A DNA stretch of 64,000 nucleotides, taken from assembly GCA_965207225.1 (NCBI GenBank), contig CBDBLV010000003.1:154546-218545 (forward strand), given 5' to 3'. The position numbers were made by a program, and so were the translations under genes. Positions 2,626 to 63,469 of the stretch are shown piece after piece. The notes below the pieces were generated by a model. That model made no database searches, had not been told where the DNA came from, and was given only the letters and a program-made list of their open reading frames with translations. Each line of letters starts with the position of its first letter. Positions within the stretch are counted from its first letter, which is position 1. Source of the DNA: Dehalococcoidia bacterium (GTDB taxonomy: Bacteria > Chloroflexota > Dehalococcoidia > Plut-88900).

Positions 2626-4416
2626 CTACTCCGACTCTATGTGTATAAACCTCAGCTTCGATATCGGAAGCGGCGAGAGCACGTAGCCCTTGATGTGCGG
2701 CTTTATCAGCACGTACCGGTCACCTTCGTACCAGCGGGGGATCCAGGGCACGTCGCTGACTATCAGCTGCTCGGCTTCCTGGTAGAGCGCTATCCGGGTC
2801 TCGACGTCCTTCTCCGTCCGCGCCTGCTCTAGCAAACCGTCCACCTGTGAGTTGGAGTAGCCCGTATGGTTGTTGGCGCTCTCCGAATGGAACAGGATGT
2901 CCAGGAAGTTCTGCGGGTCCGGGTAGTCCGCCACCCACCCGAGGGTGAACATCTGGTACCGACGCCTGTCAACGTCGTTCAGGAACGTCGCAAACTCCGA
3001 CTGCTGCACCTCCACGTTTACCCCCAGCAGCTCCTGCCACACGGCCAGGATGACCTCCGTGTCGAGACCCACCGCCCCTCCGCCCCCCGGCACCGACAGA
3101 ATAATGGTCGGCAGTTCGGCCGCGGCCAGCCTCGAGGCCTCTGCGAGCGCAATCAGCCGGCTCTCGTCGTCCGTTGCTGCATCAGCCTGGGCAACGAAGC
3201 CCGCTACCTCGGGGATCGCCCGACCATAGCTCGAATCCGCCAGCGACCTCATGGCCGTCTCGATATCGTATCGAAGTCCCAGTAGGTTCTGGTTGTGGCC
3301 CGGGAACCCCGGCGGCAGGATGCCGTAAGCCGGCACCACCAGGTTCGAGAGCACGGCCTCCGCTATCAACTCCTTGTTGATGGCCAGAGCCAGTGCCTGC
3401 CGCACCTTTGGATCGTCGAATGGCGCCATCTGGGTGTTGAATCCGAAATAGCTGACGCTGTAGTCCGGCGGCGCGATCTGGAGGTCCCGGTTGATGGGCT
3501 CGGTCGGGTCCAGGACTCGGTCGATGTCCGCAAGCCCCACGCCCGTGAAATCTATCTCATCGTTCTCGTACATCGTCATCCCGACTCCCCCGCTCAGGAT
3601 CAGGTTGACGGCGTTCAGGTGGGCCGGCTCCCGGTAGTAGAGGTCGTTCCTCTCCAGCCGGATCCTCTCCCCAATCTCCCATTCCGTCAGCCGGAACGGG
3701 CCCGTGGCGTTGGGTCTCGACGTCCAGTCGGCCCCCGACTCCACATTCTCCTGGTCAACCACGAATGCCGTCGGATACGTGAGCTTGGCCAGGAAATAAG
3801 GCTTCGGAGCATCGATGGTGATTTCCAGGGTGTAGTCGTCCAGCACCCGTATGCCGGTTACATTGTCGGCGGCGCCCCTCAGCTTCGCCGAAGCCCCGAC
3901 TATGTCGTTCAAATAGAGGTCCGCAACCGTCGACTCCGTCCTCGGGTCCAGGGCCCGCTCCATGGAGTACTTGAAGTCGTGGGCCGTAACGTCCTTGCCG
4001 TCGTGGAACTTGACATCCTGTCGGAGATAGAACGTGAAAGTCCGTTCGTCGTTGCTGATGTCCCACCTCTCGGCGATGTCCGGGACGATATTGAGGTCCG
4101 GATCAATGGTCACTAGACCGCTGAACACCTCTATCACGACAAAAGCGGAACTGGTGTCCGAGGTCAGGGCAGGGTCGAGGGTCGGTGGATCTGAAAACAG
4201 ACGCGTAAATTCGCCCCCCGACCCCGTGGAAGCGGAGTCGGTGGATTCCGCCGGAGCTTCGGATGGGGTGGTGGGGACTGGGGTGGGGGTCGGCTGGAGG
4301 GTGGGGCCCTCGTCACCGCCTCCGCAAGCGACTGCTACCAGCAGGGCAACAAGTGCAAGGGCCAGTGTTAACAATATGGTATTTCGACGCATTACTCTCC
4401 TCATCACGTCAAGCAC
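2626..4416 (-). CDS. ABC transporter substrate-binding lipoprotein, family 5 (DppA/OppA-like peptide/nickel binding)
   Basis: 596 aa. Signal peptide with lipobox LLVAVAC-GGG, a Thr/Pro linker, then the typical SBP_bac_5 core (FTRLFSDPPTLDPA, WDISNDERTFTFYLRQDVKFHDG). Confidence 0.9.
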   Translation of the reverse strand: MLDVMRRVMRRNTILLTLALALVALLVAVACGGGDEGPTLQPTPTPVPTTPSEAPAESTDSASTGSGGEFTRLFSDPPTLDPALTSDTSSAFVVIEVFSGLVTIDPDLNIVPDIAERWDISNDERTFTFYLRQDVKFHDGKDVTAHDFKYSMERALDPRTESTVADLYLNDIVGASAKLRGAADNVTGIRVLDDYTLEITIDAPKPYFLAKLTYPTAFVVDQENVESGADWTSRPNATGPFRLTEWEIGERIRLERNDLYYREPAHLNAVNLILSGGVGMTMYENDEIDFTGVGLADIDRVLDPTEPINRDLQIAPPDYSVSYFGFNTQMAPFDDPKVRQALALAINKELIAEAVLSNLVVPAYGILPPGFPGHNQNLLGLRYDIETAMRSLADSSYGRAIPEVAGFVAQADAATDDESRLIALAEASRLAAAELPTIILSVPGGGGAVGLDTEVILAVWQELLGVNVEVQQSEFATFLNDVDRRRYQMFTLGWVADYPDPQNFLDILFHSESANNHTGYSNSQVDGLLEQARTEKDVETRIALYQEAEQLIVSDVPWIPRWYEGDRYVLIKPHIKGYVLSPLPISKLRFIHIESE

Positions 4417-4576
4417 GAGACTGGGGGTCCCGCTGTTTGGCTATAGTAGCCACAAGGATATTCGGTATCAAGGTTAGTGGCTTCAAGTAAATAAACGCAC
4501 AACGCCAGGGAAAGTTACCTCGACTGTAGAGGTAGAACGAACCCCCTTAACCACCCTACCCCCCGACCCCCCTCCC

Positions 4577-7975: not shown

Positions 7976-8075
7976 CACGCGAAATCCCCAGAAATCCCTT
8001 CAGGCGTCATTCAATCAAAACAGCTACGAGTTCAATCAATGTTCAATCAAACTCAATCATATTCAATCCACCTTC
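7976..8075 (+). promoter_or_regulatory. about 90-bp promoter-proximal element with phased TCAATCA heptads, copy A (upstream of the DUF35 gene)
   Basis: cacgcgaaatccccagaaatccc..ttcaatcaaaacagctacgagttcaatcaatgttcaatcaaactcaatcatattcaatccaccttcaatca. It is nearly identical to the reverse complement of 12325-12413. Confidence 0.5.
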
Positions 8076-8116
8076 AATCATCTTTCCCGGTGGCAGGTCG
8101 GGCCCGTTCCCTCACG

Positions 8117-8146
8117 TTGACACCCGACACGGCGGAGCGATAGCAT
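8117..8146 (+). promoter_or_regulatory. putative sigma70-type promoter of the DUF35/thiolase operon (TTGACA-18-TAGCAT)
   Basis: TTGACA at 8117-8122, TAGCAT at 8141-8146. GGAGG lies just upstream of the GTG start at 8182. Confidence 0.45.
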
Positions 8147-8181: not shown

Positions 8182-8598
8182 GTGGCCCCATTGGCGGATA
8201 CTAATCGACCCCTGCCCACACCTACCCCCGAGACCAAGCCCTACTGGGACGCCCTCAGGGAGCACAAGCTCCTCATCCAGCGCTGCAAGGACTGCGACAA
8301 GGCCTATTTCTACCCTCGTCCCTTCTGCCCCACCTACCTCTGCAAGGACGTCGAGTGGTTCGAGGCCAGCGGTAAGGGCACCCTTTACTCCTTCGTCATC
8401 AACCACAGGCCGGCCCCTGGCTTCGGCCCCGACCCCTACGTCATCGCCGTCGTCGAGCTTGAAGAGGGCCCCAGGATGATGACCAACCTGGTAGGCATCG
8501 ATCCCGACCCCGACAAGATCCACTGCGACATGCCCGTCGTGATCGAATACCTGGACGTCACCGACGAGGTGACCCTCCCCCAGTTCCGGCCCGCATGA
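8182..8598 (+). CDS. DUF35 OB-fold / zinc-ribbon protein (acyl-CoA-associated partner of thiolase-like enzymes)
   Basis: KPYWDALREHKLLIQRCKDCDKAYFYPRPFCP zinc ribbon followed by an OB-fold segment (GTLYSFVINH). It is immediately followed by a thiolase-like gene, which is the canonical pairing. Confidence 0.85.
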   Translation: MAPLADTNRPLPTPTPETKPYWDALREHKLLIQRCKDCDKAYFYPRPFCPTYLCKDVEWFEASGKGTLYSFVINHRPAPGFGPDPYVIAVVELEEGPRMMTNLVGIDPDPDKIHCDMPVVIEYLDVTDEVTLPQFRPA

Positions 8599-57773: not shown

Positions 57774-57786
57774 GAGATTTTATCTC
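57774..57786. promoter_or_regulatory. inverted repeat GAGAT-TTT-ATCTC in the znuA leader (candidate metalloregulator operator)
   Basis: Located 18 nt upstream of ATG 57805. A related ATGAGAT-TTTGT-ATCTCAT lies at 61267-61285 and GAATCT-N7-AGATTC at 57615-57633. Confidence 0.35.
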
Positions 57787-57804: not shown

Positions 57805-59436
57805 ATGACATTCAACACCTTTAGAGGTCGTTTGCCGATGGCGTTGCTAGCACTCATGCTGGTCGGCCTGCTGGCATTTGCCGGAATAGCGGGATGCTCG
57901 GGTGAAGAAGATGTGGTGGAAGAAGTAGAGCAAACCACCGAAGTAGTTGAGGGTGAAGAAGAGGTGGAACAGGCCACCGAAGCAGCTGAGGGTGAAGAAG
58001 AGGTAGTGGAAGAGGTGGAACAGGCCACCGAAGCAGCTGAGGGTGAAGAAGAGGCAGAGGAGGTGGAGGAGGCGGATAAGATAAAGGTTGTTACTACCAC
58101 CAATTTTGTGGCTGATTGGGTCGAAAACGTGGGCGGCAACCGGGTGGAAGTGTTCAGCCTGGTCCCGACCGGCGCCGACCCCCACGGGTTCCAGCCCGGG
58201 GCGAGAGACGTTGCGAGGGTTGCGGATGCCGACCTGGTATTCAGCGTAGGGCTGGGGCTGGAAGACTCCTGGCTAAATGACCTGCTCCAAAACGCAGCCC
58301 GGGACCCCTCCCGCATTGTAGCGCTGACGGATTCGATAGAGCCGATAGAGTTTGGTGAAACCCACAGGGAAGACGTGGAACTGATCGCGGCCATCGAGGA
58401 AATCGTCCATGAAGTTGAAGAAGGCCATTTAAGCGCTGCTGATGCCATCGAGGAGATAGAGCACCTCCTGGCTGCCAAGGAAGAGGGCCACGACGACCAT
58501 GACCACGACGAGGAAGAGGGCCACGACGACCATGACCACGACGAGGAAGATGACCACGACGACCACGACCACGATGAGGAAGATGACCACGACGACCATG
58601 ACCACGATGAGGAAGATGACCACGACGACCATGACCACGATGAGGAAGATGACCACGACGACCATGACCACGATGAGGAAGATGACCACGACGACCATGA
58701 CCACGATGAGGAAGATGACCACGACGACCATGACCACGATGAGGAAGATGACCACGACGACCATGACCATGGAGGGGAAAGTGTTGCCGCAAAGGTCCAG
58801 GCCATAATCGACCAGGTGGAAAGCGGCGCTATGTCCTTCGGCGAGGCCATTGAGGAGATCGACCACCTGGTGCATGATGAGGAGGATGCCCACGCGGGAC
58901 ACGGGCACGGCGTAGAAGACCCACACTTCTGGTTCGACCCACTACGGGTGAAGCTGGCAGTGGACTACATAGCTGAGCAGTTGTCAGTGCTGGACCCGGC
59001 CGGGGCCAACGGTTACTGGTCCAATGCGACAGCCTACAAGGCTCAACTGGATGAGCTGGACGCATGGACGCAAGAGCAGGTCAGTGCGGTGCCTGAGTCC
59101 AACCGATTCCTATTGACCTCCCACGACAGCCTCGGATACTTCGCCGACAGGTATGGCTTCGAGGTGATTGGAGTCATACTCGGAATCACCACGGAGGTAG
59201 AGCCTTCGGCGGAGCACCTGGTTGAACTCGTGCATACTATCGAGAGATACAATGTGCCGGCGGTGTTCGGCGAGACTACGGTCAGTGAACGGCTGGCCGC
59301 TGCGCTCGCTGGGGAGACGGGCGCCGAGTTGGTTAAGCTGTACTCGGGCTCGCTGGGCGCGGAAGGAAGCGGCGCGGAAACCTACATAGGCATGTTCAGG
59401 GCCAACGTGGAGAGCATAGTCGGCGCACTGAGGTAG
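57805..59436 (+). CDS. znuA: metal (zinc-type) ABC transporter substrate-binding lipoprotein, ZnuA/TroA family, with a hyper-expanded His/Asp/Glu loop
   Basis: Lipobox IAGC-SG. ZnuA core (KVVTTTNFVADWV, DPHGFQP, DPHFWFDP, SHDSLGYFADRYG). The His-rich loop sits at the canonical position just before DPHFWFDP. Confidence 0.85.
   Translation: MTFNTFRGRLPMALLALMLVGLLAFAGIAGCSGEEDVVEEVEQTTEVVEGEEEVEQATEAAEGEEEVVEEVEQATEAAEGEEEAEEVEEADKIKVVTTTNFVADWVENVGGNRVEVFSLVPTGADPHGFQPGARDVARVADADLVFSVGLGLEDSWLNDLLQNAARDPSRIVALTDSIEPIEFGETHREDVELIAAIEEIVHEVEEGHLSAADAIEEIEHLLAAKEEGHDDHDHDEEEGHDDHDHDEEDDHDDHDHDEEDDHDDHDHDEEDDHDDHDHDEEDDHDDHDHDEEDDHDDHDHDEEDDHDDHDHDEEDDHDDHDHGGESVAAKVQAIIDQVESGAMSFGEAIEEIDHLVHDEEDAHAGHGHGVEDPHFWFDPLRVKLAVDYIAEQLSVLDPAGANGYWSNATAYKAQLDELDAWTQEQVSAVPESNRFLLTSHDSLGYFADRYGFEVIGVILGITTEVEPSAEHLVELVHTIERYNVPAVFGETTVSERLAAALAGETGAELVKLYSGSLGAEGSGAETYIGMFRANVESIVGALR
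58486..58770 (+). repeat. in-frame 33-bp tandem repeat, about 8.6 copies, encoding (G/D)HDDHDHDEE(E/D)
   Basis: Units start at 58486, 58519, 58552 and so on. The five units from 58585 to 58749 are identical at the DNA level. Confidence 0.9.
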
Positions 59437-59471
59437 GGGCCTTCAAAAGGGCGTAGATACCGGAACCCGAG

Positions 59472-60239
59472 ATGATAAAGACAGTTTCCAGTCCCGGTAT
59501 AAGCGTCGATGACATCACCGTAGTTCGCGGCGGTCATACGGCGCTGACGGACGTTACCTTTTCGGTAGGGCCAGCTACTCTCTTGGGAGTGGTAGGCCCT
59601 AACGGAGCAGGTAAGAGCACCTTGCTGGAGGCTATTGTTGGCCTATTGCCCCTGGACAAGGGCTCGGTCCAACTTCATGGCTCTGCCGCCGAAAAGGGAG
59701 GGATAGCCTACGTTCCGCAAAGGGACAGGATAAACTGGGCCTTTCCGGCCACGGTGCACGACGTTGTGATGATGGGGAGGTGCTGCAACCTGGGATGGTT
59801 TCGACAGCCCGGTAGGTATGACCGGGAGTTGGTCTGCGAATGCCTGGAGCGGGTTGACATGTGGGACAGGCGCAGTTCGCCAATCACCGAGTTGTCGGGA
59901 GGGCAGCGCCAGAGGGTATTCATAGGTCGGGCGCTAGCGCAGGAGGCCAGTGTAATCCTGCTGGACGAGGCATTCAGCGGCGTGGATGCCGGGGCCCAGG
60001 AAGACATCATCGAAGTACTTCAGGTTCTCCGGGACGAGGGCCGGGTAGCGGTGGTGGTAACCCACGACCTGACCAACCTTGCCCAGCGCTTCGACGAGAT
60101 ACTCTGCATTAACCATCACCTCTGCGCCAAGGGCCCTCCTGAAGAAGCCTTCACTCCTGAAGTCATGACGGAGCTCTACGGGTCTCACGGCGTTGAGTTC
60201 GCCCCCGATCACTACGAGCCGACCCTCAGCGGACGGTAG
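59472..60239 (+). CDS. znuC: metal ABC transporter ATP-binding protein
   Basis: Walker A GPNGAGKST, signature LSGGQRQRV and Walker B ILLDEAFSGVD. Confidence 0.9.
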   Translation: MIKTVSSPGISVDDITVVRGGHTALTDVTFSVGPATLLGVVGPNGAGKSTLLEAIVGLLPLDKGSVQLHGSAAEKGGIAYVPQRDRINWAFPATVHDVVMMGRCCNLGWFRQPGRYDRELVCECLERVDMWDRRSSPITELSGGQRQRVFIGRALAQEASVILLDEAFSGVDAGAQEDIIEVLQVLRDEGRVAVVVTHDLTNLAQRFDEILCINHHLCAKGPPEEAFTPEVMTELYGSHGVEFAPDHYEPTLSGR

Positions 60240-61057
60240 TGGACTACATATCCGATCCCTTCCAGTACAGCTTCATGGTGCGGGCGCTTATCGTGTCGGT
60301 GCTGGTGGGGGTGATGTGCCCGATACTGGGGGCATACGTGATCACCAGGGGTCGGGCCTTCATGGGCGACGCCCTGGCCCACTCCGTGCTGCCGGCCATG
60401 ATAGCGGCCTTCATGCTGGGTTTCAGCCCCTTCTTCGCCGCGGTGCCGGCAGCAGTCCTGATAGCCATACTAATGGGGAGCATCAGTCGGCGCACGGGCA
60501 TCAGCGAAGACACCTCGATTGGCATCATATTTGCGGGTATGTTCGCTCTCGGGCTGGTGATGCTGTCCACGGCGACAAATATCAACATTGATATAGAGGA
60601 CCTGTTGCTTGGGCAGGTGCTGGGGGTTTCGCAGACTGATGTCTACGTGTCCCTGGGGCTGACGGCTCTGGTGCTGGCGGGACTATATGCCTTCCATCGA
60701 CAGCTGATCTATACGACGTTCGACCTAGTGGGGGCGGCTGTTGTCGGGATCAAGACCAGGATAATTGAATACGTGCTGCTGGCCCTTTTGGGCCTGGTGA
60801 TAGTGATCGGGATCCAGGCGGCGGGTATCGTGCTGGTTATGGCTATGCTCATAACTCCTGCCGCTGCGGCCTACCTGATAGCCAAGAGGTTCGTGGGGGT
60901 GATGGTGTTGGGGGCAGTGATTGGGGCTGCATCGGCAGTCACGGGCCTTTACCTCTCTTACTATGTGGACCTACCCTCGGGGCCGGCGATGGCACTGGTG
61001 GCGACGGGGGTCTTTGCAGTGACGGCTGTGGGGAAGCGGAGATTCGCGACCAGGTAG
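60239..61057 (+). CDS. znuB: metal ABC transporter permease (ABC-3 family)
   Basis: 272 aa, 8-9 TM, FMVRALIVSVLVG..AYVITRGRAFMGDALAH is typical of ZnuB/TroCD permeases. The GTG start overlaps the znuC stop by 1 nt. Confidence 0.85.
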   Translation: MDYISDPFQYSFMVRALIVSVLVGVMCPILGAYVITRGRAFMGDALAHSVLPAMIAAFMLGFSPFFAAVPAAVLIAILMGSISRRTGISEDTSIGIIFAGMFALGLVMLSTATNINIDIEDLLLGQVLGVSQTDVYVSLGLTALVLAGLYAFHRQLIYTTFDLVGAAVVGIKTRIIEYVLLALLGLVIVIGIQAAGIVLVMAMLITPAAAAYLIAKRFVGVMVLGAVIGAASAVTGLYLSYYVDLPSGPAMALVATGVFAVTAVGKRRFATR

Positions 61058-61266
61058 TCTGGCGGTCCCGCTCCACGAATGTCCGAAGAGTCCTTCCAAC
61101 CCCGTTCAAGACGGCTGTGCCTATTCCCCGTTTAGTGAATGTGACGGGCCCCTGAAGTTAAGGCACTAGCAGTGCTTTTCCAACGAGGATTCGGGCGCTC
61201 CGTAAATTGGTTTTGATGTCCTATTGCATTTAATGAGACATATATGACATACTTACTGAGACACGT

Positions 61267-61285
61267 ATGAGATTTTGTATCTCAT
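61267..61285. promoter_or_regulatory. perfect inverted repeat ATGAGAT-TTTGT-ATCTCAT upstream of the His/Cys-rich gene
   Basis: It lies just downstream of a possible TTGCAT-18-CATACT promoter (61225-61254). Direct TGAGAC half-sites occur at 61234 and 61257. Confidence 0.4.
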
Positions 61286-61354
61286 AGCTTCAGCCGGGCC
61301 CCCGGACAGTCCGGGGGTTGGCATGCTGGAGAAAAAGCTCAGGAGGCAAATACT

Positions 61355-61576
61355 ATGGCAAACGCCCATGACTCTCATGAGTGCGACGCTCATGAGCACC
61401 ACGGTGACGAGCCCGGGCACATCCACGACGCTCACGAGTGCGACGGGCACGAGCACCACGCCGAGGACCACGGCCACGACTCGCATGAGTGCGACACGCA
61501 CGAGCACCATGGCGACGAAGCCGGGCACGTACATGACCCGCACGAGTGCGACGGACACGAGCACCACGGACACTAG
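61355..61576 (+). CDS. small (73 aa) His/Cys-rich repeat protein, candidate metal-binding protein or metallochaperone
   Basis: AGGAGG lies 8 nt upstream of the ATG. There are four HECDxHEHH motifs separated by His/Asp/Glu linkers, and a strong terminator follows. Confidence 0.65.
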   Translation: MANAHDSHECDAHEHHGDEPGHIHDAHECDGHEHHAEDHGHDSHECDTHEHHGDEAGHVHDPHECDGHEHHGH

Positions 61577-61597
61577 ACCGAAATATCCAGAAAATCG

Positions 61598-61660
61598 GCC
61601 AAGGTCGCTGGACCTTGGCAAGGAAAAGCGCCGACCTCTTTGGGTCGGCGCTTTTGCGTT
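61598..61660. terminator. double hairpin, bidirectional terminator between convergent genes
   Basis: GCCAAGGTC-GCTG-GACCTTGGC (61598-61619), then AAAGCGCCGACC-TCTTTG-GGTCGGCGCTTT (61625-61654) flanked by A-rich and T-rich tracts. Confidence 0.65.
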
Positions 61661-61696
61661 CACTGCGTTTAGAGGCCCGCTGCTAAGGATGGTGTG

Positions 61697-61999
61697 TTAG
61701 ATGGGGAACCACTTCCTTCTAACGTTGCCGAAGCGAGACCGGGACACGAGGTGGTCTTCCTTGCATCCCAGTACGGATTCCTCTGCCTGTATCGTAGCGT
61801 GGGTGATACCGAAGTTGTCATGGGCGAGGTCCTTGATGCTCCTCAAGAGCTCATCCCTGTCTCCTGGGTAGTTGGGATTTATGAGCACATGGGCGGTGAA
61901 GGCGACCATTCCGGGGGTGATTGTCCAGACGTGAACGTCGTGGATGAAGGTAACGCATGGGATGTCCTCGGCGTCCCAGGGCTGGGGATGTGACTCCAC
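61697..61999 (-). pseudogene. C-terminal remnant of a cation-diffusion-facilitator (CzcD/ZitB-type) exporter
   Basis: Only the cytoplasmic domain is present (IHDVHVWTITPGMVAFTAHVLI..FGITHATIQAEE). The roughly 200-aa transmembrane domain is missing and its place is taken by REP sequence. Confidence 0.65.
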
Positions 62000-62163: not shown

Positions 62164-62350
62164 AGAATAAACAGAGAGATGCACCTGCACCAAGACACAA
62201 GTGCATCTCTCCGATTTGTTACTGGAGGAGGACCAGGGGCCCTGATTGCAATATCATTGTTTCAATTTATGGCCTAGTTTGGTACAATCAAAAACCGTGA
62301 GCAAAAAAAGCTCGAAATGGGTGCCTGATAGGAGAGGAGTGATTTTAGTC

Positions 62351-63469
62351 ATGAGATATAAAGGCTTATTTGGGATGCTTGTACTCGGCGTCCTCCTGGC
62401 CGTGGTTGTCGCTTGCGGCGGTGGGCTTTCGGAGGAGGACGTGGAGACCCGGGCGCAGGAGTTGGCTGACCAGATGGCTGCCGAGATGGCCACGGGCGAA
62501 AGGCTGGCCGCCATACAGGAACGGGGCGTAGTAATATGCGCCAGCAGGAACGACGTACCGGGCTACGGATCCCTTGACGCAGCCGGCAACAACGTCGGAT
62601 TCGACATAGACCTGTGCCGGGCGGTTGCTACCGCGGTGCTCGGGGACCCGAACGCCATTGAGATCCGGCTGATCACGGCGGCGGAACGAGGCCCGACGAT
62701 CCAGTCAGGCGAAGTGGACCTGCTGGTAAGGACCGTGACTTGGACCACCTCCCGAGACGCAAGCTGGGGCAACTACGTGCAGACCATGTTCTACGACGGA
62801 CAGGGTTTCATGGTCCCCAACTCTCTGGGCATTTCCAGCGCCCTGGAGCTAAAGGACGCCACGGTCTGCGTAACCCAGGGAACTACGACAGAACTGAACC
62901 TCCAGGACTTCTCCAACCAGAACAACCTGAACATCACTCCGCTGACATTCGAGGACACGGACGCCGTGGTCGCTGCTTATGAGAACGAGCAGTGCGACTC
63001 CTTCACCAATGACAACTCCCAGCTGGCCGCGCTGGGCACTGCGCTTTCGGACCGGAGCGCCCACACGATTCTTCCGGACACGATATCGGAAGAGCCCCTG
63101 GGGCCTGTTGTTCCTCATGGGGACGACCAGTGGTTCGACATCGTGAAGACGGTCATGGGCATCCTGATCTACTCGGAGGCCTACGGGGTTGACTCGGGCA
63201 GCGTGCCCACATCGAGCACCGGAGACACCAAGGTTGACAGGCTGTTCGGCCTAGAGGGCTCCTTTGGACAGGACGCTCTTGGCCTGGACCAGACTGTTGC
63301 GCAGGACGTAATCAAGGCCGTTGGAAACTACGGCGAGATCTACGACCGCAACCTGGGCCCCGACGGGATCAACCTCCCCCGGGAAGGCGGACGGAACGCA
63401 CTGTGGTCCAACGCCCCGTGCACCGACTGCCCGAAGGGCGGCCAGATATACGCAGCGCCTCTGCGTTAA
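62351..63469 (+). CDS. amino-acid ABC transporter substrate-binding lipoprotein (family 3, AapJ/BztA-like general amino-acid type)
   Basis: Start at MRYKGLFGMLVLGVLLAVVVAC-GGG (ATG 62351, GGAGAGGAG upstream). GVVICASRNDVPGYG, FDIDLCRAVA and LVRTVTWTTSRD. Confidence 0.85.
   Translation: MRYKGLFGMLVLGVLLAVVVACGGGLSEEDVETRAQELADQMAAEMATGERLAAIQERGVVICASRNDVPGYGSLDAAGNNVGFDIDLCRAVATAVLGDPNAIEIRLITAAERGPTIQSGEVDLLVRTVTWTTSRDASWGNYVQTMFYDGQGFMVPNSLGISSALELKDATVCVTQGTTTELNLQDFSNQNNLNITPLTFEDTDAVVAAYENEQCDSFTNDNSQLAALGTALSDRSAHTILPDTISEEPLGPVVPHGDDQWFDIVKTVMGILIYSEAYGVDSGSVPTSSTGDTKVDRLFGLEGSFGQDALGLDQTVAQDVIKAVGNYGEIYDRNLGPDGINLPREGGRNALWSNAPCTDCPKGGQIYAAPLR

Follow-up and report, generated by a model that had tools for sequence, protein, structure and literature searches.

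To our knowledge, the proteins that buffer or move zinc in the bacterial cytosol are poorly known, metallothioneins being confined to a few groups, and we know of no organism in which a CDF/ZnT exporter has been assigned a zinc chaperone. A logic to which such a partnership can be likened is that of CopZ, which hands metal to the N-terminal metal-binding domains of CopA. Among small metal-sequestering proteins, Hpn and Hpn-2 of gastric Helicobacter are tiny cytosolic proteins of 60-73 aa with very high His content, four Cys (in Hpn two CC pairs) and no hydrophobic core; Hpn binds Ni, the presumed role is to sequester metal and hand it on, and their occurrence is restricted to a lineage and niche (PMC4671568). 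SmtA and BmtA, the latter especially in Synechococcus WH8102, are small zinc-sequestering proteins whose setting is zinc homeostasis. A single Zur acts on znuABC and on a zinc-storage protein in WH8102, each promoter having Zur boxes, and it can repress the former while activating the latter (PMC9337993).

The window, i.e., the whole stretch of 64 kb analysed here, carries a gene for a 73-aa protein of four HECDxHEHH repeats that shares its small size, His-richness and niche-restricted occurrence with Hpn, and its zinc-homeostasis setting with SmtA and BmtA. We consider it an even call that this HECD protein is a cytosolic, high-capacity Zn(II) buffer or relay that is disordered without metal. 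The locus is built as follows.

57805..61057, plus strand: zinc importer genes (znuA-like SBP 57805-59436, ABC ATPase 59472-60239, ABC-3 permease 60239-61057)
61296..61319, plus strand: GC-rich 5′-leader hairpin (CCCCCGG / CCGGGGG), from the RNA fold
61341..61346, plus strand: Shine-Dalgarno sequence AGGAGG, 8 nt before the ATG of the 73-aa ORF
61355..61576, plus strand: HECD-repeat microprotein gene, 73 aa, stop codon within the coordinates
61376..61459, plus strand: repeat pair 1, HECDAHEHH - GDEPGHIHDA - HECDGHEHH, proposed metal-binding hairpin unit
61484..61567, plus strand: repeat pair 2, HECDTHEHH - GDEAGHVHDP - HECDGHEHH, within the 108-nt tandem duplication
61598..61656, both strands: two hairpins 3′ of the stop codon (61598-61619 and 61624-61656)
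61697..61999, minus strand: 3′ remnant of a ZitB-like CDF gene, ZT_dimer C-terminal domain only (Pfam, 8.9e-10), 100 aa

The translation of the 73-aa ORF reads MANAHDSHECDAHEHHGDEPGHIHDAHECDGHEHHAEDHGHDSHECDTHEHHGDEAGHVHDPHECDGHEHHGH. It contains 24 His (32.9%), 4 Cys (5.5%), 11 Asp and 11 Glu; Lys and Arg are absent, and only three residues are hydrophobic. HECDxHEHH stands at residues 8-16, 27-35, 44-52 and 63-71; the longest His run is two, and each Cys is single, inside HECD. At 61362-61568, the DNA of the ORF consists of a 108-nt unit duplicated in tandem (83% identity, TRF score 302), well past what chance would produce. A sequence-only reading made before this analysis had given the ORF coordinates, its sequence and residue counts, the AGGAGG and a bidirectional terminator, all of which we reproduced; its judgement that the protein has no hydrophobic core agrees with the three hydrophobic residues in 73, and its distance of 300 nt to znuB was measured as 297 nt, from the stop of the ABC-3 permease gene at 61057 to the AGGAGG-led ORF. 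The 3′ hairpin region folds at -44.8 kcal/mol (z = -5.6 on the plus and -4.2 on the minus strand). Its second hairpin lies between an A-run and a T-run, can terminate both strands, and is predicted to be a bidirectional terminator common to the 73-aa gene and the convergent CDF remnant.

Regarding the 5′ leader, the hairpin is kept at matching positions in L006, L012, L013 and L022 (labels of the form L### denote related loci) and shows, across five species, a single compensatory change from C-G to T-A; a lineage with a TTGACT promoter has another leader hairpin (GCCTTGC...GCAAGGC) in a similar place. Neither the leader hairpin nor the ORF flanks matched an Rfam family.

Searches with the 73-aa protein against Pfam and NCBIfam (both at E <= 0.1) and against PDB sequences gave no match. 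The earlier statement that it is unlike SmtA-type metallothioneins is borne out, as no metallothionein Pfam match was found and the 4 Cys in 73 residues contrast with 24 His; a metal-thiolate cluster as in SmtA/BmtA is impossible at this Cys content, and the ligands would be mostly imidazole and carboxylate. BLASTP gave E = 0.14 over 17 residues against SmtA and E = 28 against Hpn, with SmtA and Hpn sequences entered by hand. The contrast with Hpn, which the same reading based on the pairing of Cys with His, stands only in part: the proteins have no sequence similarity, but Hpn has four Cys, too (PMC4671568). They differ in layout, with poly-His runs and CC pairs in Hpn and a strict 14-residue repeat with single Cys and many Asp and Glu here, and in context, which is the nickel network of NikR, urease and hydrogenase for Hpn and zinc transporters for the HECD protein. 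By function, it would be placed beside Hpn, the metallothioneins and other small proteins that sequester metal, from which it differs in sequence and ligand chemistry.

The custom HMM search for the repeat that had been suggested was run exhaustively against 1.84 billion representative proteins and returned 33 clusters, all of 31-133 aa and without larger domain context. By contrast with the 36 proteins present in databases, a DNA-level scan with one genome per species found relatives of the ORF in 279 species-level genomes; many gene callers had missed the gene. The best 80 of these 279 genomes were examined closely. The conserved unit is H-x-H-D-x-H-E-C-D-x-H-E-H-H, two such units being linked by G-D-E-P-G-H-V-H-D. 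In 379 repeat instances, four His (-3, +5, +7 and +8 from HECD) and one Glu (+6) show little or no variation, and the invariant Cys, His, Asp and Glu positions span two phyla. Among 81 related genes, four repeats are most frequent (66 genes), followed by eight (6), ten (5) and single genes with two, three, six or seven. Because the repeat number, which ranges from 2 to 10, is even in 79 of the 81, the repeat pair looks like the functional unit. AlphaFold2 (19-sequence alignment) yielded a pLDDT of 52.6 and no secondary structure, the outcome expected if folding requires metal. Literature on the HECD motif, on His-rich CDF partners, on Zur-regulated His-rich proteins and on zinc genes of sponge symbionts did not contain the family. 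This is a narrow family without described relatives, and its linkage to an exporter and its distribution among sponge symbionts are unreported in the literature found.

One Dehalococcoidia genome carries two tandem four-repeat HECD genes (L006, 6001-6228 and 6363-6605). A 419-aa JGI hypothetical protein (P0057) is filed in the 90% cluster of P0009 together with a 53-aa protein, with which it has no visible sequence in common; it was rejected as a family member and is probably a clustering artefact.

The 73-aa ORF is a genuine gene on which purifying selection acts strongly. A GGAGG-like Shine-Dalgarno sequence lies at an equal distance from the start codon in nearly all of 83 related genes. 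In the 61 genes with a collinear 64-codon core, the median dN/dS in the annotated frame is 0.057 (880 pairs; median dS 1.4), and variable codon positions fall on the third position in 64/64 codons, compared to 19/64 for the first and 21/64 for the second. In the other frames over the ORF, dN/dS is > 2.8, save for an antisense frame whose third positions coincide with those of the real one (0.25). Together with the occurrence in 279 genomes, the promoter/operator block described below and the terminator, these observations establish the gene. The HECD gene has intact length in 80/80 loci, and it stands alone in the window and in all 80. It is exceedingly improbable that the ORF has no function as a protein and is a detached fragment of a CDF N-terminus or an antisense or terminator-control transcript for the convergent CDF gene. 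Such a reading can draw on the presence of the module inside two CDF N-termini and on the frequent omission by gene callers, but it is opposed by selection that acts in the annotated frame only, by the conserved Shine-Dalgarno sequence and start, by ligand residues that are invariant across two phyla and by the intact length in every locus; moreover, the gene lies on the strand opposite to the CDF gene in 53 loci and is therefore not a simple split of it.

Several other readings were discarded. The codon evidence rules out a gene remnant, an alternative frame and a non-coding element, and by the same dN/dS evidence the overlapping ORFs of 136 aa (61253..61663, minus strand) and 141 aa (61275..61700, plus strand) are by-products of the His-codon repeats. 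A leader peptide of a His attenuator is excluded by the invariant Cys, Asp and Glu positions and by the lack of his genes downstream. A RiPP precursor is ruled out by the absence of conserved maturation enzymes near HECD genes.

The genomic context was analysed by tblastn of all loci, for which a full-length CDF and the window proteins were the queries, and by unbiased clustering of the neighbouring ORFs. Both identified a CDF transporter as the sole widely conserved neighbour in the 80 loci, arranged as follows.

Convergent with the HECD gene: 53/80 loci, stop codons a median of ~108 nt apart
Co-directional, downstream of the HECD gene: 9/80 loci, as close as 12 nt in L057
Elsewhere in the locus: 2/80 loci
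Absent within 6 kb: 16/80 loci

The CDF gene is adjacent to the HECD gene in 62/80 loci from two phyla, while the ZnuABC importer is found in 12-17/80; in 12/80 the HECD gene follows, on its own strand, an ABC-3 permease gene that stops < 800 nt before it, as in the window. The survey of gene neighbourhoods that the sequence-only reading had called for thus singles out a ZitB-like CDF exporter, not ZnuABC. A Znu-type importer also recurs near HECD genes, in second place after the exporter. The proposed sensor role is unsupported, as the 73-aa protein lacks any domain for DNA binding or signalling. Among the clustered neighbouring ORFs, there was neither a conserved regulator gene nor a conserved maturation enzyme.

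All partner CDFs have long His/Asp-rich N-terminal tails (HDHDAHAG-type). Tails of ZitB/CzcD/ZnT-type CDFs and ZnuA loops resemble the HECD protein as low-complexity, His/Asp-rich zinc-binding segments encoded in the same loci; they differ in having no Cys and no fixed HECDxHEHH register and in varying freely in length, whereas the HECD protein is a separate gene product with invariant positions. In two lineages, the module HECDxHEHH-GDEPGHVHD-HECDxHEHH is part of the N-terminal tail of the CDF itself, in addition to a separate four-repeat gene: in L055 and L097-99 (Acidimicrobiia OM1 bin76, Aplysina aerophoba) and in L083 (Spongiisociaceae). The earlier concern that homologues might prove to be His-rich termini of larger proteins thus applies to these two lineages and not elsewhere, and both of them also retain the stand-alone HECD gene.

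These fusions bring the CopZ/CopA pair to mind, in which a stand-alone module is likewise also fused to the exporter N-terminus and the gene adjoins that of the transporter. Fold, metal and transporter class are different, and the HECD fusion is rare: the homology to a domain of the adjacent transporter is confined to the two lineages, and the other ~60 partner CDFs are without the HECD module. A tentative possibility is that the HECD protein is a dedicated partner of the CDF, either a zinc metallochaperone to its N-terminal tail or a gating regulator, with general buffering as a secondary role. This would account for the adjacency in two phyla, for the fused module beside a retained stand-alone gene and for the long tails on all partner CDFs. 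It is weakened by the mostly convergent genes with separate promoters, by the occurrence of the fusion in only 2 of about 65 CDFs, and by the 16/80 loci and a 53-aa subfamily that have no CDF gene nearby. Some of these observations also count against a buffer coupled to the exporter, namely the 16 loci without a CDF within 6 kb, the lack of metal genes around the 53-aa subfamily and the convergent rather than operonic arrangement of most HECD-CDF pairs.

The evidence for zinc as the metal comes from both transporters. HD-HD type CDFs can transport Co or Cd as well. The partner CDF has HxxxD in TM2 and TM5 (CDF site A), which we take to mark the Zn/Co/Cd group, and its best NCBIfam match is ZitB with 263 bits, below the equivalog cut-off, followed at a distance by DmeF with 103 bits. 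The importer genes match ZnuA (1.6e-59), ABC_tran and ABC-3 (2.4e-70) in Pfam, and the third metal ligand of the window SBP is His, aligned with TroA, ZnuA and Lmb, i.e., of the Zn type. With the His/Asp loop of the SBP and the operator-like palindrome that the HECD gene has in common with znuA, these features strengthen the link to zinc drawn from the sequence at first. Storage or detoxification of another metal (Ni, Co, Cd or Cu) in the manner of Hpn is very unlikely. It could be argued from the possible Co/Cd transport by HD-HD CDFs, from the DmeF score and from the Ni binding of the His-rich, Cys-poor Hpn (PMC4671568), but the ZitB score is far above that of DmeF, the importer is of the Zn type, sequence similarity to Hpn is absent and genes for urease, hydrogenase, NikR or cobalamin were not among the conserved neighbours of HECD genes in the ORF clustering.

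The ZnuA-like SBP of the window reaches 543 aa through two inserts of low complexity: an N-terminal EEVEQATEAAEGEE repeat and, at ~58480-58760, a loop of ~90 residues in which DDHDHDEE(D/E) is repeated about ten times, a length that is unusual for the His-rich loop of ZnuA.

Upstream of the HECD gene, a block at 61220-61290 (~65 nt conserved) is nearly invariant in five species, whereas its flanks and the synonymous sites of the gene have diverged. The following elements were assigned to this block and to the znuA promoter region.

61224..61253, plus strand: promoter-like element TTGCAT - 18 nt - TGaCATACT (extended -10), read by eye and missed by a strict consensus scan
61234..61286, both strands: operator-like cluster with TGAGACA at 61234 and 61257 and a palindrome at 61266-61286
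57774..57786, both strands: the 13-nt palindrome for the second time (GAGATTTTATCTC), 31 nt 5′ of the ATG of znuA

The palindrome at 61266-61286 is TATGAGAT-N5-ATCTCATA and contains the 13-nt site GAGATTTTGTATC (61269-61281). Of the 33 TGAGAY half-sites in the window, four fall in the 50 nt of this cluster, one TGAGACA half-site occupying the promoter spacer and another the predicted start site of the HECD gene. The 13-nt motif GAKAY-N3-RTMTC occurs at three sites in 64 kb, compared to 0.54 expected. In 1.04 Mb of related loci, 15 of its 31 occurrences are located <=250 nt upstream of HECD genes, a region making up 2% of the sequence; most of the others stand 31-38 nt before znuA (L006, L007, L013, L022, L067) or 36 nt before a Fur-family gene heading a zur-znuA cluster (L003/L004). 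At the sequence level, the operator-like motif is common to the promoters of the HECD gene, znuA and zur, as in a Zur regulon. This suggests that GAKAY-N3-RTMTC is the shared operator of a local Zur and that these genes form one zinc regulon, a layout paralleled by the Zur boxes at znuA and the storage gene of WH8102 (PMC9337993). The motif was looked for upstream of the partner CDFs and not found there, so that the HECD gene and the exporter are probably not co-regulated, a further point against a dedicated CDF partner.

The position of the operator varies. It lies within and downstream of the promoter in the window, a geometry that looks like repression of the HECD gene, and upstream of the -35 element in other lineages. 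Transcribed palindromes may alternatively act at the RNA level, which leaves the untranscribed palindromes of the other lineages unexplained. Another reading is that the HECD protein is a zinc-starvation protein of the Zur regulon, produced under zinc scarcity alone, which would take up the zinc that ZnuABC brings in and either distribute it to clients or hoard it. The palindrome common to the znuA and zur promoters, the repressor-like placement of the window half-sites (in the spacer, at the predicted start and just downstream) and the location of the gene directly 3′ of the ABC-3 permease gene in 12/80 loci and in the window speak for such a role. We nevertheless regard it as unlikely: the dominant partner is an exporter, sites upstream of -35 fit activation as well, and Zur is able to activate storage or export genes at high zinc (PMC9337993; PMC11077047).

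A third copy of the 13-nt palindrome, GATATTCGGTATC, lies at 4457-4469, 41 nt before an SBP_bac_5 gene (ORF 2626-4416, minus strand); this gene for a binding protein of the peptide/nickel/opine type may be a further member of the palindrome regulon. The Acidimicrobiia loci L015, L033, L035, L044, L056 and L062 are without the palindrome and have two or three direct repeats of GATGGTTTGCA instead, spaced by ~22 nt, ~100-170 nt upstream of the HECD gene and overlapping a TTGCAT -35 element, which suggests the use of a different regulator in that phylum.

In the window itself, the exporter has been lost. The reference for this deletion was the syntenic locus L013 (OZ241876.1), with 84-95% nucleotide identity in the aligned flanking blocks. 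Relative to it, the window lacks 1131 bp, with the junction at ~61970 (reading ggatgtcctcg, then gcgtcccaggg). The deletion took CDF residues 1 to ~284 and ~276 nt upstream, that is, promoter, N-terminal tail and membrane domain. The 100-aa ZT_dimer ORF is therefore a 3′ remnant, the first eight codons of which derive from beyond the junction. No other CDF gene and no Fur-family gene was found in the 64-kb window. The HECD protein differs by one residue between the window and L013, and an intact HECD gene in a genome that lost the CDF argues against a role solely as its partner; with the adjacent exporter deleted, only the buffering function would remain in this genome.

A different course is seen in L003/L004, where a two-repeat HECD gene (8001-8132) has HEYD, HKHH and HDCD at otherwise invariant positions and adjoins a 119-aa, ZT_dimer-only CDF stub (8235-8594) as well as a zur-znuACB cluster. 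This may be a decaying locus. The reduction of the CDF along with the loss of conserved HECD residues fits a functional coupling of the two and would favour the dedicated-partner reading, although it is a single anecdote. As to the flank of the window locus, a 19-bp terminator-like stem-loop (62172-62213, minus strand) lies between the CDF stub and an SBP_bac_3 gene (62246-63469); it is conserved flank DNA from the former upstream region of the CDF gene.

The zinc buffer or relay that we favour would work as follows. The HECD microprotein, which has no signal peptide, would be cytosolic and intrinsically disordered until metal binds. Binding would fold each HxHDxHECDxHEHH pair into a hairpin around the Gly-Asp-Glu-Pro-Gly turn, in which two Cys and two His per pair could form a tight Cys2His2-type site and the remaining ~10 His and ~10 carboxylates weaker, exchangeable sites, so that a four-repeat protein could carry several Zn ions. 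Its expression would follow zinc status via the shared operator, probably a Zur box. Zinc arriving through ZnuABC would be held by the HECD protein and exchanged with the His-rich N-terminal tail of the exporter, a tail that includes this module in two lineages. Members of the family can be made by synthesis owing to their small size, their ligand pattern is explicit, and a natural domain fusion indicates a clear genomic partner; in combination, these properties provide a directly testable model of how zinc is delivered to a CDF transporter or kept from it.

The 279 genomes belong mostly to Dehalococcoidia/SAR202-type Chloroflexota and to Acidimicrobiia, including Candidatus Spongiisocius, and bacteria associated with sponges are nearly the only carriers of the family. 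Among 241 million metagenome records scanned, only 26 loci were found. The assembly prefixes identify Petrosia ficiformis (LXNJ), Sarcotragus foetidus (LXNI) and Aplysina aerophoba (MKWU); the other loci are JGI records (Ga0209544, Ga0209754, JGI24794J26673, JGIcombinedJ30088), whose matches mostly duplicate A. aerophoba contigs. We infer from this identity that the JGI records probably come from A. aerophoba, too, in which case all metagenome matches are from Mediterranean sponges. The gene was not found in the seawater assembly LXNH of the study that produced the sponge assemblies, and a scan of viral contigs found no HECD relative. Among the symbionts of A. aerophoba, the family is present in MPMM bin22 (SAR202) and MPNA bin76 (OM1).

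As it is restricted to sponge microbiomes, where Chloroflexota and Actinomycetota both carry it, the family is a candidate symbiosis-specific trait. It is also a conserved microprotein that is systematically missed by gene callers and, having neither Lys nor Arg, by tryptic proteomics. The most far-reaching interpretation, which we find rather doubtful, is that, in the HECD protein, a cytosolic zinc metallochaperone or gatekeeper dedicated to a CDF exporter has been found for the first time. As the zinc equivalent of CopZ/CopA, it would have evolved and been passed horizontally between sponge symbionts from two phyla, adapting them to the metal conditions inside sponge tissue.

A two-repeat subfamily of 53 aa (L086-L091) ends in tails of the form ...KELVAAG or ...AGVGVS, neither with CDF or Znu genes nearby. 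The KELVAAG form (L086-L089) adjoins resolvase, IS21 or transposase genes, which suggests that it is cargo of a mobile element and itself mobile, and the other form (L090-L091) lies among unannotated genes. One sequence of this subfamily is found on 41 contigs.
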